64,000 nt of DNA. Origin: an uncultured Candidatus Rokubacteria bacterium. GTDB lineage: Bacteria; Methylomirabilota; Methylomirabilia; Rokubacteriales; DASRDR01. The stretch covers positions 224,001-288,000 of the forward strand of contig CAWGVS010000006.1 in NCBI GenBank assembly GCA_963826115.1, written 5' to 3'. Positions 44,022-47,721 of this stretch are shown in pieces. Within the stretch, counting starts at the first letter, position 1; each line of letters begins with the position of its first letter. Below the pieces are notes generated by a model. That model made no database searches. It was given only the letters and a program-made list of their open reading frames with translations, and was not told the DNA's origin. The translations under genes were made by a program, and so were the position numbers.

Positions 44022-45881
44022 ATGACCGCGTATCCGCTCGCCGTCCGTCAGCGGGCGCTGCTGACGTTCGTCGCGCTCAACGCGGCGGCGGCCGGGCTCC
44101 ACGCGCAGCGCTTCCTCTTCGCGGGGGACGCGATGCCGTCCGGGCTGGGGCTCGAGTTCGCCGCGACGGCGCTCCTGGCCCAGGTCGGTCTCGCGGCGCT
44201 GGTGCTCCACGCGGCGCTCGGGGCGATCGCCTTCCTGGACTCGCGGGCGATCGTCACCCGTGTCCTGGCCGCGCTCGCCTTCACGCTGGTCCACACGTTC
44301 ATCTACGTCGACGCGCGGATCTACGGCTTCTTCCGGTTCCACTTCAACGCCCTCGCGCTGAACGTGCTCCTGACGCCCGGCGGCTTCGAGTCGATGCAGC
44401 TGCCGGAGGGCGACGTGGCCATGGCGGTCGTGGGCATCGCGGTGCTGCTCGGGTTGCAGCTCCTCGGCTATTCGGCGCTCCTCCGCTGGCTCCGGACCGC
44501 GGAGTGGGGGGTCGGGCGGCGCTGGCTCGCGCTGGTCGCCACGGTGCTGGCGCTCGTTCTGGTGGAGCGGGCGACGTATGCCGCGGGGGACCTCCTCGAC
44601 ATCCCGGGCATCGCTCGCCAGACGCGCCTCATCCCGCTCTACGAGCCGCTCCGGCTCCGGGAAGTCCGGCAGCGCCTCCGGCTCCCGAGCGACCCGGCGG
44701 CGCGGGCCCGCGAGCCGGGGGAGAGCGCCCTCGACTATCCGCGCGAGCCCGTCCGGGGCGCGGTGAAGGCCGACCACCGCTGGAATGTCGTGTGGATCAT
44801 GGTCGAGTCCTGGCGCGCCGACACGTTCAGCGCGGAGAACACCCCGAACATCTGGCGCTTCTCCCGGCGCGGACAGGTCTTCCAGCAGCATCTGAGCGGC
44901 GGGCACTCGACCCGCTTCGGGATCTTCTCGGCGCTCTACGGGCTCCACGGCACTTACTGGTGGCCCTTCCTCGCCGAGGGGCGGGAGCCCGTCCTCATCG
45001 CGAAGCTGATCGAGGCCGGCTACCGGTTCCGCATCCTGTCGAGCACCTCGCTCGGCTACCCAGAGTTCCGCCAGACCGCCTTCCACTCCGTGCGGTCTGC
45101 GGTGAGCGACCGCCTGCCCGCCGCGTCGGTGGCGGAGCGGGACGTGCTCCAGGCGCAGGCGTTCGACGAGTTCCTGGAGGCGACTCCCCGGGACCAGGCC
45201 TTCTTCGCGTTCCTCTTCCTGGGGGCGCCCCACTTTCCGTTCCTCTTCACGCCGGAGCATGCGAAGTTCCTCCCCGTTCTCGAGCACCCGACGATCGCCC
45301 AGGCGCAGACCCCCGAGGGCAGCCGCCAGATGTACAACCGCTACCGGAACTCGATCCACTCCGTGGACGCGGTGGTGGGCTCGATCGTGGGCGCGCTGGA
45401 TCGGCGGGGACTCCTGGATCGATCGATCGTGGTCGTGACGGGGGACCACGGCCAGGAGTTCTACGAGCACGGGTTCTTCGGCCACGGCAGCGCCTTCACC
45501 CCGGAGCAGACGCACGTCCCGCTCGTGATGCTCGTGCCCGGGCTGCCGTTCCGCGAGCACGGGCACCTCACCCAGCACCAGGACCTGCCCGCCACGATGC
45601 TGGCGCTCCTCGGGATCGACGATCCCCCCGACCGCTACAGTCTGGGCCGGAATATGCTCGAGGGCCGGGGACGACCCTACGCCGTCGTGTGCGGCTTCCG
45701 GGAGTGCGCGCTGCAGGACGCGGACGGGTGGGTCGTCTTTGGCGTGGAAGGGAAGACCGCGCTCTCCCTCGAGGCGCGGGACCGTGACTACGTTGAGGTC
45801 CCGGACCTGGCGGCGGCGGTGGGCCGGCGCCGCGACCGGCTCCTCGCGACGATGCAGGAGATGCGCACCTTCCTGCGCTGA
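44022..45881 (+). CDS. YejM/PbgA-like (DUF3413 + sulfatase-fold) inner membrane protein
   Basis: About 5 N-terminal TM helices with DARIYGFFRFHFN; NVVWIMVESWRAD, HLSGGHSTRFGIFSALYG, TGDHGQEF. Confidence 0.75.
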   Translation: MTAYPLAVRQRALLTFVALNAAAAGLHAQRFLFAGDAMPSGLGLEFAATALLAQVGLAALVLHAALGAIAFLDSRAIVTRVLAALAFTLVHTFIYVDARIYGFFRFHFNALALNVLLTPGGFESMQLPEGDVAMAVVGIAVLLGLQLLGYSALLRWLRTAEWGVGRRWLALVATVLALVLVERATYAAGDLLDIPGIARQTRLIPLYEPLRLREVRQRLRLPSDPAARAREPGESALDYPREPVRGAVKADHRWNVVWIMVESWRADTFSAENTPNIWRFSRRGQVFQQHLSGGHSTRFGIFSALYGLHGTYWWPFLAEGREPVLIAKLIEAGYRFRILSSTSLGYPEFRQTAFHSVRSAVSDRLPAASVAERDVLQAQAFDEFLEATPRDQAFFAFLFLGAPHFPFLFTPEHAKFLPVLEHPTIAQAQTPEGSRQMYNRYRNSIHSVDAVVGSIVGALDRRGLLDRSIVVVTGDHGQEFYEHGFFGHGSAFTPEQTHVPLVMLVPGLPFREHGHLTQHQDLPATMLALLGIDDPPDRYSLGRNMLEGRGRPYAVVCGFRECALQDADGWVVFGVEGKTALSLEARDRDYVEVPDLAAAVGRRRDRLLATMQEMRTFLR

Positions 45882-45982
45882 GCCGCGGCGGCCCGGGCTG
45901 CCTGCCTCGTTCCACGGGCCGAAGGGCCAGGACATCCTTGCCCGAAGTGTCACTCCGTTGACATGCCTTCCATGTTTTGCTC

Positions 45983-46011
45983 TTGACACAACTTTCAGTG
46001 ACGGATAGGCT
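45983..46011 (+). promoter_or_regulatory. Sigma70-type promoter of the AbiEi-like gene
   Basis: TTGACA (45983-45988), 17 nt, TAGGCT (46006-46011). Confidence 0.75.
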
Positions 46012-46048
46012 TTCAGCGCACGTTGAAAATGACCGGACAAGTGAAAGT
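45991..46048. promoter_or_regulatory. Dyad-symmetric operator with four half-sites
   Basis: TTTCA at 45993 and 46011; TGAAA at 46024 and 46042; 18-bp period; both pairs share one symmetry axis; outer pair ACTTTCA/TGAAAGT. Confidence 0.7.
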
Positions 46049-47101
46049 ATGGTTCGGATTGCAGAATTCAAGAAGGACGCCGCGGAGCGGCTTCGCGCCC
46101 TCTTTCCGCAAGTGGCTGAATGGCAAGAGTCTCTAGATGCGACCGTCGGCGACCAGACGGTGGATGTGCTCGTCCGGTTCCGGATGGGGCCCGGCCAGGA
46201 GACCAAGACACTGATCTGTGAGGCTCGTACCCGGGGTGAGCCCCGGCACCTCCGCGAGGCCGTAACCCGACTTCGAGAGCTCCGGGGCCATGTCCCGGGG
46301 GCCTACCCCCTGGTGGCGGCGCCCTACGTGACCGCCCAGTCCTCGGCCCTCCTGCGCCGGAATGGCTGCGGCTACCTCGACCTGGCCGGCAACTGCTACC
46401 TCGCCTTCGACAACGTCCTCATCCAGAAGGAAGGGCGCCCCAACGCGGGACTGGTCCGCCGTCCCCTCAAGGCCCTGTTCGCGCCGCGGGCGACGCGGAT
46501 CGTCCGCGCCCTCCTGGTGGAGCGGGACCGCGCCTGGCGCCTCGACGAGCTGGGCCGGGCGGTCGGCGTCAGCCTCGGCCACGCCCACAACGTGGTGAAG
46601 CGCCTCGAGGAGCTCGACTGGGTGGAGCGGGGGCGGGACGGGCTCTACCGGCTGCCGCGGCCCGGGGACCTGCTCGACGCCTGGCGCGACGGGTATCGCT
46701 ACCGCGTCAACGGGCTGAGCGCCTTCGTCTCCCCGGCGGGAGACAAGCGCCGGATCATGGAGGCCCTTGCGCGGCACGCGACCGAGCTGGGCGTGACCTA
46801 CGCGTTCACGCTCCACGCGGGCGCGTCCCTCATCGGCCCGCACACGCGTGTCTCCACGGTGCACTGCTACGTGAGCGGCGACACCGAGGCGCTCATCCGG
46901 GCCCTCGGGCTCCAGCCGGTCGAGGGCGAGGGCGCGGTCTACCTGATGGCTCCGTACGACCCGGGCGTGTTCTACGCGCCGGTGGTCAAGGGCGGGTTCC
47001 GGGTGGTCAGTCTCCCGCAGCTCTACGTGGACCTCTACGGCCACGAGCGGCGCGGGCGCGAGCAGGCCGAGAAGCTCCGTCGCGACGCGATGGGGTTCTA
47101 G
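46049..47101 (+). CDS. AbiEi_2 / DUF2186-like transcriptional regulator (type IV TA antitoxin family), no cognate toxin adjacent
   Basis: YLDLAGNC, central wHTH (LDELGRAVGVSLGHAHNVVKRLEE), LLDAW...Y, C-terminal VSLPQLYVDL...RGREQAEKL; start moved to ATG 46049, downstream of the promoter. Confidence 0.75.
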   Translation: MVRIAEFKKDAAERLRALFPQVAEWQESLDATVGDQTVDVLVRFRMGPGQETKTLICEARTRGEPRHLREAVTRLRELRGHVPGAYPLVAAPYVTAQSSALLRRNGCGYLDLAGNCYLAFDNVLIQKEGRPNAGLVRRPLKALFAPRATRIVRALLVERDRAWRLDELGRAVGVSLGHAHNVVKRLEELDWVERGRDGLYRLPRPGDLLDAWRDGYRYRVNGLSAFVSPAGDKRRIMEALARHATELGVTYAFTLHAGASLIGPHTRVSTVHCYVSGDTEALIRALGLQPVEGEGAVYLMAPYDPGVFYAPVVKGGFRVVSLPQLYVDLYGHERRGREQAEKLRRDAMGF

Positions 47102-47134
47102 CCGCGCTCACGCGAGCGGAAGGAGGTGAGCACG

Positions 47135-47170
47135 ATGGCGAAGAAGAAGGCGGCGAAGAAGAAGAAGTAA
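47135..47170 (+). CDS. 11-aa lysine-rich micro-ORF MAKKKAAKKKK (copy 1)
   Basis: AAGGAGGTGA Shine-Dalgarno at 47120-47129; ATG GCG AAG AAG AAG GCG GCG AAG AAG AAG AAG TAA. Confidence 0.75.
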   Translation: MAKKKAAKKKK

Positions 47171-47189
47171 CGTCGTCAGCGGTGTCGCT

Positions 47190-47211
47190 CGAAGGGGGTG
47201 CAGCCCCTTCG
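47190..47211 (+). other. Stem-loop between the micro-ORF copies
   Basis: CGAAGGGG-gtgcag-CCCCTTCG 8-bp stem. Confidence 0.6.
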
Positions 47212-47246
47212 CGGAACCCAGACGTCACGAGGGGAGGTGATGATCG

Positions 47247-47282
47247 ATGGCGAAGAAGAAGGCGGCCAAGAAGAAGAAGTAG
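47247..47282 (+). CDS. 11-aa lysine-rich micro-ORF MAKKKAAKKKK (copy 2)
   Basis: GGAGGTGAT Shine-Dalgarno at 47233-47241; same peptide, differing only by GCC vs GCG and TAG vs TAA. Confidence 0.75.
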   Translation: MAKKKAAKKKK

Positions 47283-47294
47283 GGTGCTGTGACG

Positions 47295-47327
47295 GGGTCA
47301 GGGGACGAGGCCAGCCCTGACCCTTCT
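47295..47327 (+). terminator. Terminator-like hairpin after micro-ORF copy 2
   Basis: GGGTCAGGG (47295-47303) / CCCTGACCC (47315-47323) followed by TTCT; lies between convergent units. Confidence 0.6.
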
Positions 47328-47379
47328 GGTACTGTCAGCGCAGGCCGCCGGGGGCGACTGGCACCCCCGGCGGCCGGTC

Positions 47380-47571
47380 CTAGACGGCCTTGGTGACCTT
47401 GCCGCCCCGCAGGCAGCGTGTGCAGACGCGGACCCGCTTGGCTCGGCCCTTCACGACCGCCCGCATCGATACCAGGTTCGGCAGCCATCGGCGCGAGGAC
47501 ACGTTGTGCGCGTGGCTGATCTGGTTGCCCACGACGGGACCCTTCCCACACACATCACAGCGTTGGGCCAT
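47380..47571 (-). CDS. rpmB: 50S ribosomal protein L28 (zinc-ribbon type)
   Basis: MAQRCDVCGKGPVVGNQISHAHNVSSRRWLPNL...VCTRCLRGGKV, 63 aa. Confidence 0.95.
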   Translation of the reverse strand: MAQRCDVCGKGPVVGNQISHAHNVSSRRWLPNLVSMRAVVKGRAKRVRVCTRCLRGGKVTKAV

Positions 47572-47721
47572 GCCTCTGGACTCCTCGGGAGAGATGACGC
47601 TCCGGCCGGCTTTCCCGGGCCCGGAACGGGCCGGCTTGCCGCCGAGCAAGACACTTCTATACCATGGGGGCCGAGGTGAGACAAGCCTGACACCTCGTCT
47701 GCTCCCGCGGCCGTCTCGCCC

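Follow-up and report, generated by a model that had tools for sequence, protein, structure and literature searches.

A conserved candidate operon of an orphan AbiEi-family protein and lysine-rich micro-ORFs in the Rokubacteriales

The window analysed here is a stretch of 64,000 nucleotides (nt) from an uncultured Candidatus Rokubacteria bacterium (GenBank assembly GCA_963826115.1, contig CAWGVS010000006.1, positions 224,001 to 288,000). It encodes a 350-amino-acid (aa) protein of the AbiEi family of type IV toxin-antitoxin (TA) systems, and in the place of the AbiEii toxin gene stand two 11-codon open reading frames (ORFs) that encode the peptide MAKKKAAKKKK. The AbiEi-like protein is a new, orphan and domesticated branch of a known family, and its gene is a single-copy core gene of the window's order, vertically inherited and not mobile. 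The micro-ORFs belong to a family of Lys/Ala polycations that is universal in this order and present in most families of the phylum. We lean towards the view that the locus is an autoregulated operon supplying abundant oligolysine micro-proteins, which would act on nucleic acids or ribosomes. The elements listed in an earlier annotation of this locus (hereafter the original prediction), namely a promoter, a dyad, the 350-aa gene, a ribosome-binding site 18 nt past its stop, the micro-ORFs and a hairpin, are all in place (Table 1).

Conservation of the arrangement was surveyed with one genome per species, which gave 80 loci with an ortholog at 52-90% identity. Gene order is the same in nearly all of them: relA, a zincin-like peptidase gene, the AbiEi-like gene, the micro-ORFs, a convergent rpmB and recG. 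The housekeeping setting noted in the original prediction is thus a syntenic feature. Under a strict pattern, Lys-rich micro-ORFs are found in 77 of the 80 loci. A looser rule (a motif resembling a Shine-Dalgarno (SD) sequence, 6-40 codons, at least 45% Lys plus Arg and a Lys-Lys pair) recovers basic micro-ORFs between the AbiEi-like gene and rpmB in all 80, and the occupation of the toxin slot by micro-ORFs, as first proposed, is conserved throughout. The looser rule counts two micro-ORFs in 71 loci, one in 7 and three in 2; one locus, L060, stops 140 nt past the AbiEi-like gene. The same rule gave 155 matches in the 23.9 kb of gaps between the AbiEi-like gene and rpmB versus a single match in the remaining 1.26 Mb of these loci, both strands included. 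Genome searches for micro-ORFs covered the window's own phylum, where the strict pattern matches 168 of 251 genomes (20/20 in family f1 and 140/159 in family f2), usually one to six times per genome; the window's genome has three such genes. A reversed-pattern control matched none of the 251 genomes. The AbiEi ortholog is present in 20/20 genomes of f1, 152/159 of f2 and 3/3 of f3-f5, mostly once per genome. These tallies take in five unpublished genomes (G038, G074, G084, G113 and G244), on which no conclusion rests.

Several features indicate that the micro-ORFs encode peptides. The 169 distinct nucleotide versions translate into 114 peptides of 10-25 residues, with ATG (131), GTG (30) or TTG (8) as starts and TAG (106), TAA (62) or TGA (1) as stops. 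Over about 2460 residues the composition is 61% Lys, 21% Ala, 5.7% Arg, 4.5% Gly and 3.8% Thr, and the acidic residues amount to one Glu and no Asp. Codon counts in the 169 units are 1374 for AAG, 141 for AAA, 40 for AGG, 17 for AGA, 84 for CGN, 1 for GAG and 0 for GAA. A single transition turns AAG into AAA, which is synonymous, into AGG, which preserves the charge, or into GAG, which preserves the purines and reverses the charge. The near-absence of GAG and GAA together with the tolerance of AGG, AGA and CGN points to selection on peptide charge and not on a purine-run RNA; judged by their codon use, the peptides are under selection for positive charge. In the window, the 36-nt micro-ORF pattern occurs twice versus 0.00 times expected (100 shuffles), and the genome, at 72% G+C, holds three Lys-run micro-ORFs with an SD in all. 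Micro-ORF 1 reads ATG GCG AAG AAG AAG GCG GCG AAG AAG AAG AAG TAA. The SD GGAGGTGA followed by a start codon has 56 occurrences in the genome, and the N-termini of the ORFs concerned include some that read by eye as ribosomal S20, ribosomal S6 and an RNA-binding protein. Because this SD is rare and common to ribosomal-type ORFs, the micro-ORF signals are those of highly expressed genes.

The layout of the junction makes it likely that the AbiEi-like gene and the micro-ORFs are co-transcribed, in line with the operonic link put forward originally. The gap between the AbiEi stop and the SD shrinks to as little as 6 nt in orthologs and measures 6-20 nt in several, which leaves no room for a promoter, so that co-transcription is hard to avoid. 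No conserved promoter is embedded in the 3' end of the AbiEi-like gene, where third positions of the last 50 codons vary freely. Contigs from RNA libraries (four runs of four studies, from soil and sediment) also bridge the junctions with 0-2 differences. Three of them connect the gene end with micro-ORF 1 (46932-47147, 47038-47211 and 47056-47160), and one connects the first hairpin with micro-ORF 2 (47182-47274). A +GAA/AAG variant of micro-ORF 2, with one extra Lys at window position 47251, occurs among the contigs of all four runs and reflects natural differences between strains in the length of the Lys run. In each run the summed contig depth is highest over the micro-ORFs, a measure that cannot rank genes and includes K-rich contigs of other organisms. 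The lack of contig cover at 45500-46115 carries no evidential weight. The RNA contigs thus do no more than hint at expression and continuity of the region.

The protein encoded by the first gene is assigned, on profile and model evidence, to the long form of the AbiEi family. This form combines a nuclease-like N-terminal domain, a winged helix-turn-helix (wHTH) domain and a C-terminal AbiEi_2 domain of nucleotidyltransferase (NTase) fold, with approximate limits of 1-125 for the PD-(D/E)xK-like domain, 140-205 for the wHTH and 205-345 for the C domain. In the window protein Pfam recognizes HTH_IclR at residues 155-194 (E 8.2e-6); AbiEi_2 (PF09952) is not reported for it even at E<=10, nor in a six-frame search of the genome. 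The family assignment made in the original prediction is upheld by the orthologs. At E<=10, 20 of 21 aligned orthologs match the full AbiEi_2 model, and six of seven relatives scanned singly match all 143 positions of the model above the curated cut-off of 21 bits, which the 90%-identical ortholog passes with 27.9 bits. Alignments of the window protein to annotated AbiEi proteins run over the full length at 30-36% identity, and 'type IV toxin-antitoxin system AbiEi family antitoxin' is among the source names of close relatives. The family is large, with 5123 cluster representatives at E<=0.001, many of them of about 350 aa. The long form probably corresponds to the COG4861-COG4849 pairing of PMC3985639.

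An AlphaFold model built from the ortholog alignment (mean predicted local distance difference test score 78.6, predicted template modelling score 0.55) has three domains. Residues 3-132 resemble PD-(D/E)xK nucleases, with AF1548 (1y88) at Z 11.2 and a root-mean-square deviation (rmsd) of 2.8 over 108 aligned residues, NucS (2vld) at Z 9.9 and, by Foldseek, EndoMS at E 1.2e-4. Regulators of the wHTH type match residues of about 136-217 at Z 8-9. Residues 230-338 resemble the nucleotidyltransferase ANT(2'') (4xje; Z 8.8, rmsd 3.2, 109 aligned), and Foldseek matches the C domain to tm1012 and MenT1 at E of about 1e-2. In the E-x-K motif of the nuclease-like domain, the Lys position is Arg in the window protein and varies among orthologs. 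NCBIfam holds no family for the 350-aa protein, and the ortholog profile found nothing at E<=1 among the sequences of solved structures.

The AbiEi-like protein has lost its AbiEii partner. No AbiEii gene is adjacent, the downstream slot being taken by the two 11-codon ORFs and then by the convergent rpmB, and PF08843 (AbiEii) has 0 matches in the window's genome, which is 99.09% complete; control genomes were matched. The AbiEi-like gene is therefore an orphan, as was originally claimed. The 80 ortholog loci have no room for AbiEii, with gaps of about 300 nt each between the gene and rpmB. Canonical relatives were found on plasmids, where tblastn gave 117 records at 30-36% identity, with a query coverage of 80% or more in 104. 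Seven plasmid loci were inspected, one of which is without annotation at this place. All six annotated loci carry an overlapping ORF of 289-292 aa directly downstream of AbiEi; four of these ORFs bear the name AbiEii/AbiGii nucleotidyltransferase and two are called 'hypothetical protein'. Sister orders of the same phylum contain sporadic AbiEi homologs at 27-41% identity, and in six such loci the next ORF has 250-295 aa. Pfam AbiEii is matched above cut-off by this ORF in two of them (L159, L160) and AbiEii or NTP_transf_8 below cut-off in L161, L162 and L164; in L163 it has no Pfam match. Orthologs in the neighbourhood survey thus carry micro-ORFs and never AbiEii, and AbiEii-like next genes occur only at distant homologs (27-41% identity). 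The condition under which the original prediction would have fallen, AbiEii beside close homologs or micro-ORFs missing there, therefore came out in its favour.

The candidate operator consists of two nested dyads that overlap the -10 hexamer and the 5' untranslated region (UTR) of the AbiEi-like gene, whose ATG at 46049 has no SD before it. The -35 hexamer and a TAnnnT motif are kept in 27 of 27 aligned orthologous upstream regions, and all four TTTCA/TGAAA half-sites are kept across orthologs at 52-90% identity. The shared block in the 27 regions consists of a T-run, CTTGACA, CTTTCA, TAnnnT, TTTCAGC, GCTGAAA, AAGTGAAA and ATG, with unalignable flanks. A simple strict consensus scan calls no promoter at 45983-46011, where the -10 hexamer is weak; the element is labelled a promoter because the upstream block is conserved, not because such a scan called one. 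The dyad TTTCA-N5-11-TGAAA has 2 occurrences in the 6.24-Mb genome, one of them at the AbiEi-like promoter. Since the dyad is nearly unique, the regulator probably has this one target. Published work on AbiE describes a two-gene operon in which AbiEi comes first and AbiEii second, with AbiEi repressing the operon promoter via inverted repeats (PMC3985639; PMC7319586). The earlier idea of a domesticated autoregulator fits the single-copy core status of the gene and its dyads, which are conserved and have hardly any parallel elsewhere in the genome; the stress- or phage-induced production proposed along with it is a conjecture.

Sister orders contain a parallel module. Elsewhere in the class, orders either lack the AbiEi ortholog or have it as part of a canonical pair, and the strict pattern still matches a few genomes there. 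The tandem micro-ORFs of these orders follow two genes, encoding a wHTH-MNT protein and a 149-aa HEPN protein. The wHTH-MNT protein mostly has 186-189 aa, with an HVO_A0114-type wHTH in 11/11 members and an NTase remnant matching NTP_transf_2 in 1/11 and Polbeta in 2/11. The HEPN protein is present in 19/21 genomes of f7, 15/15 of f8, 6/6 of f10, 1/2 of f11, 1/1 of f12 and 14/20 of f13, and is absent from f1 (0/20) and f2 (0/159), the mirror image of the AbiEi ortholog; the His of its Rx4H motif is not conserved. K-rich micro-ORFs, usually two, begin 47-138 nt past the HEPN gene in 30/30 loci, or in 28/28 without the two loci from unpublished genomes. A separate conserved promoter precedes this operon, and its -10 hexamer is spanned by a dyad (TTGATG..CATCAA or CGTTG..CAACG). 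The wHTH-MNT and AbiEi wHTH profiles align in hhalign with 79% probability (E 1.6e-5, 79 columns), the profile-profile signal covering the wHTH only; the AbiEi profile gave no significant match to single wHTH or HEPN sequences of the sister orders. No rpmB, recG or relA is found near the sister-order loci, and the association is therefore not carried by the same synteny block. The recurrence of the same micro-genes behind a different domesticated TA pair argues that the link between regulator and micro-genes is functional and not an accident of synteny.

The third copy in the window's genome stands alone. A TTGACA/TAGCAT promoter of its own and the same SD precede it, and a hairpin with a short T-containing tail follows; neither TTTCA/TGAAA dyads nor a regulator gene lie beside it. 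Stand-alone mini-genes of this kind are kept in two families, with a T-run, TTGACA, 17-18 nt, a TAGCAT-like hexamer, a variable 5' UTR, an SD and 11-13 codons, and they end in the hairpin GGAGGCCCCGC / GCGGGGCCTCC followed by a short T-containing tail. By its sequence signals, the stand-alone copy indicates that the micro-gene works as a unit without a regulator. In both families it is usually upstream of an EamA-family transporter gene; in L114 the downstream gene encodes an adenylate cyclase instead. Two further observations concern its surroundings. In f1 a B12-binding radical SAM gene is divergent from the stand-alone micro-gene and EamA, and in f2 a phosphoribosyltransferase gene takes its place (L112 2534-4729 (-), L115 4581-6515 (+)). 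Within the genus, a conserved CAACCNGTAGGGGGC motif lies about 60 nt upstream of the stand-alone -35 hexamer (L016, L018, L019, L021-L024 and L026).

In the autoregulated operon that we find somewhat the better supported reading, a strong promoter overlapped by two nested dyads would drive three cistrons. The AbiEi-like protein would be the first and poorly translated, and the two 11-codon genes would follow with the strongest SD used in the genome, each ending in a GC-rich hairpin. The peptides would be the products of consequence: with one RNA translated weakly at the regulator cistron and very strongly at the micro-ORFs, their output from this locus would be steady and high. The AbiEi-like protein would bind the dyads, repress its own promoter and hold the local peptide supply at a set level, and its nuclease-like and NTase-fold domains may receive a signal. 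The peptides, with a net charge of about +8 in 11 residues and no hydrophobic face, could act on polyanions such as RNA, DNA and ribosomes. A wider formulation, possible though doubtful in our judgement, is that these genes provide genetically encoded oligolysine, i.e., free bulk polycations of 10-25 residues made from mini-genes. Their level might be sensed and set by TA-derived regulators, AbiEi in one order and wHTH-MNT/HEPN in others, and the toxin-freed NTase-fold or HEPN domains may sense the peptide or the polyanion bound to it. The idea that the peptides stand in for polyamines finds no support; the genome encodes domains of spermidine synthase and AdoMet decarboxylase.

Several points weigh against the autoregulated operon. 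Synteny is strong throughout the order, including relA, the zincin gene, rpmB and recG, so that conserved adjacency alone says little about a functional link. Peptide production cannot be wholly under the regulator, since the third copy is driven by a separate promoter that has none of the dyads. The micro-ORF set was chosen by its Lys plus Arg content, which mildly biases the composition count, and slippage in AAG repeats gives in-frame length changes anyway and so adds no evidence for coding. The RNA contigs cannot establish one transcript, a strand or a level, and DNA carry-over is possible. Micro-ORF translation, DNA binding by the regulator and activity of the peptides are predictions from sequence, and nucleic acids or ribosomes as the target are a guess that has only the charge to go by.

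Order-wide synteny could also mean that there is no functional link at all, the micro-ORFs being independent housekeeping genes (e.g., for ribosome- or nucleoid-associated products) in a frozen gene order, with an unrelated role for the AbiEi-like protein. The stand-alone copy, a micro-gene as its own unit, is consistent with this, as is the synteny of the whole neighbourhood with rpmB adjoining the micro-ORF pair. We nevertheless consider it unlikely: the short stop-to-SD gaps of several orthologs have no promoter room, the tandem pair appears again behind a wHTH-NTase-type set at another genomic place in all 30 sister-order loci, and across families either upstream gene set excludes the other. 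Alternatively, the module could be TA-like or serve abortive infection, as the original prediction had also suggested. The repressor would then keep the micro-genes off until a trigger causes massive expression that stops growth, either through the polycation or through tie-up of tRNA-Lys by translation of the Lys codons. Short minigenes are known to tie up tRNA from the lambda bar minigene literature. The micro-ORFs fill the exact AbiEii slot, a perfect SD is combined with a strong promoter and an operator of the repressor type, and the sister-order micro-ORFs follow a HEPN/MNT-type pair, another TA family. According to PMC13096801, the VapC4 toxin depletes one tRNA and stalls ribosomes at Cys codons in ORFs. 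However, if the product were toxic, the third copy would be lethal, being driven by a strong conserved promoter of its own with no regulator beside it, and the module is a vertically inherited single-copy core feature of the order, neither mobile nor patchy. Because of the unregulated third copy and the core-gene status, this toxin-like reading is weakened and rated low, as quite unlikely. The catalytic His of the HEPN protein is likewise not conserved, only 1-2 of 11 MNT-like domains still match NTase models, and PADLOC gives weak matches only (PDC-M05A at E 0.0027 and Csa3 at E 0.016).

The micro-ORFs might instead act in cis with the peptide as a by-product, either as a Lys-sensing leader or attenuator or as ribosome-loading pads that, with the hairpins, stabilise the 3' end of the operon RNA. 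Leader peptides dominated by the amino acid that they sense are a classical device, with a lysine case in Thermus. The position of the stand-alone copy upstream of an EamA-family transporter in two families and the hairpin after each micro-ORF would suit such a role, which we regard as very unlikely. The micro-ORFs of the window are the last cistrons, facing the convergent rpmB, with nothing downstream to regulate, and no alternative pairing partner for the purine run is seen in a fold (z -1.61) of simple hairpins only. Codon use also favours charge selection over RNA, and the stand-alone copy of L114 precedes adenylate cyclase, not EamA. That the micro-ORFs are untranslated chance ORFs in a purine-rich spacer is extremely improbable. 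They are too short for gene callers and their coding status is a prediction, but start, SD spacing and stop are kept in all 169 distinct sequences across the phylum, and neither the empty reversed-pattern control nor the single background match agrees with chance. An origin from phages was rejected after a viral-contig scan that gave 5 contigs, none resembling the module. Four of the five share one 15-codon basic ORF in unrelated surroundings, and the fifth has a membrane-anchored 38-aa ORF. In the related phage contigs L154, L155, L157 and L158, the 15-codon ORF MAKKKCKKKKKKRRR overlaps the start of the next gene and follows the end of a Lys-rich gene.

Table 1. Features of the AbiEi-like locus and the stand-alone copy (window positions unless stated otherwise)
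Feature	Position	Strand	Basis or remark
Promoter	45983..46011	+	-35 TTGACA 45983-45988, 17-nt spacer, -10 TAGGCT 46006-46011; T-rich stretch just 5'
Nested dyads, candidate operator	45991..46048	.	Outer arms ACTTTCA 45991-45997 / TGAAAGT 46042-46048; inner TTTCA 46011-46015 / TGAAA 46024-46028
Orphan AbiEi-family protein, 350 aa	46049..47101	+	Pfam wHTH, AbiEi_2 of orthologs, AlphaFold model, fold matches, alignment to annotated AbiEi
SD AAGGAGGTGA of micro-ORF 1	47120..47129	+	Starts 18 nt past the AbiEi-like stop
Micro-ORF 1, MAKKKAAKKKK, stop TAA	47135..47170	+	Sequence; kept in orthologous loci
GC-rich hairpin after micro-ORF 1, CGAAGGGGG / CCCCTTCG	47190..47211	+	Minimum-energy fold; no T run
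SD GGAGGTGA of micro-ORF 2	47233..47240	+	Sequence
Micro-ORF 2, MAKKKAAKKKK, stop TAG	47247..47282	+	Differs from copy 1 by one synonymous Ala change and the stop codon
GC-rich hairpin after micro-ORF 2, operon end, GGGTCAGGG / CCCTGACCC	47295..47323	+	Minimum-energy fold
Hairpin behind convergent rpmB, GCCGCCGGGGG / CCCCCGGCGGC	47344..47374	-	Putative role, from position
rpmB (ribosomal protein L28), convergent neighbour	47380..47571	-	Pfam Ribosomal_L28, E 2.4e-21
Third copy, MAKKKATKKKK	G000:C5:1098947-1098982, outside the window	not stated	Pattern match in the genome

The hairpins behind the micro-ORFs are terminator-like in the sense of GC-rich hairpins; a strict terminator scan calls neither, as both are without a T run. 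Both are present in the minimum-energy fold of a region that is not unusual in its folding, and Rfam has no match at E<=1 in 45800-47700. A hairpin after the last micro-ORF is kept, with differing sequences, in the 75 distinct orthologous tails listed. In family f2 (L045-L107), about 15-45 nt past the last micro-ORF, the hairpin GGTGGGGGG TGGCGG CCTCCCACC is near-invariant, loop included, in dozens of species, which is more conservation than a plain terminator needs. Between the zincin-like and AbiEi-like genes, the window has a gene for a 619-aa sulfatase/DUF3413 membrane protein (44022-45881). This gene occurs in 3/80 ortholog loci (L029, L031 and L035) and is a variable insertion in a fixed order. 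Other small ORFs of the genome lie outside the window. At G000:C10:136997 there is a 29-codon Cys-rich ORF (MAHQYRCEKCGH...) with the same perfect SD that may encode a small zinc-ribbon protein. At G000:C12:419255-419359, a 34-codon Arg/Lys-rich ORF (MMPATKRAPRRRK...) with GAGAGGAGG before it may be another gene for a small basic protein. A 3-codon 'MAK' ORF with the same SD at C12:788708 was judged unrelated.

If the autoregulated operon is real, an abundant phylum of soil and groundwater has conserved micro-proteins of 10-25 residues that are invisible to standard annotation and rank among the most strongly signalled genes of the genome. The locus would also be a clear case of the fate of an antitoxin after toxin loss, kept in hundreds of species as a regulator of new cargo, with a second, non-orthologous TA pair showing the same outcome in sister lineages. 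The role of an orphan antitoxin would become directly testable with small defined parts: one promoter, one protein and one 11-residue peptide. Should the wider oligolysine formulation hold, it would add a new class of ribosome-made small effector and a new fate for antitoxins. A literature search, with supplements outside its scope, gave no description of Lys-rich micro-ORFs in the phylum or beside AbiEi or HEPN genes; its part on AbiE yielded AbiE papers only. This points to a micro-ORF family, and a repeated pairing with TA-derived regulators, that are undescribed in the literature searched.

Known systems share parts of this arrangement. Very small basic ribosomal proteins include eL41, bTHX, bS22 and bL37. 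The micro-peptides resemble them in size class, extreme basic charge, strong translation signals, the presence of several copies and, in the window's order, a ribosomal-protein neighbour. They differ in being low-complexity Lys/Ala sequences without the Arg, Trp or Tyr positions of those proteins and in having no ribosomal-protein neighbour in sister orders; 11 residues are too short for a comparison by homology. A leader-peptide attenuator needs an ORF upstream and alternative pairings, whereas here the ORFs are last cistrons with simple hairpins only. The HEPN-MNT pairs have a counterpart in the sister orders, where the micro-genes follow wHTH-MNT and HEPN genes; their wHTH is akin to the one in the AbiEi-like protein, and an NTase-fold domain is common to the two regulators. 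In contrast to those pairs, the His of Rx4H is not conserved, most members have a degenerate MNT motif, and the set is single-copy and near-universal in sister orders and absent from the window's genome. Codon-rich small ORFs that report the state of tRNA or translation are described for Cys-codon stalling by VapC4 (PMC13096801) and for the topAI-yjhQ upstream ORF (PMC12121999). Those ORFs are also short, dominated by one codon and adjoined by TA-type genes; they stand upstream of their target, whereas here the ORFs are last cistrons and the peptide itself is under selection. The closest system is the AbiE type IV TA. The family of the first gene is the same (AbiEi_2 in orthologs, wHTH and 30-36% full-length identity to annotated AbiEi), as is its place at the head of a short candidate operon whose promoter has inverted repeats, as in published autorepression. 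Unlike AbiE, the genome has no AbiEii, the second slot holds two 11-codon Lys-rich genes, and orthologs do not retain the Lys of E-x-K in the nuclease-like domain. The AbiEi-like gene is core, syntenic and single-copy between relA/zincin and rpmB/recG, and not part of a mobile element or defence island.

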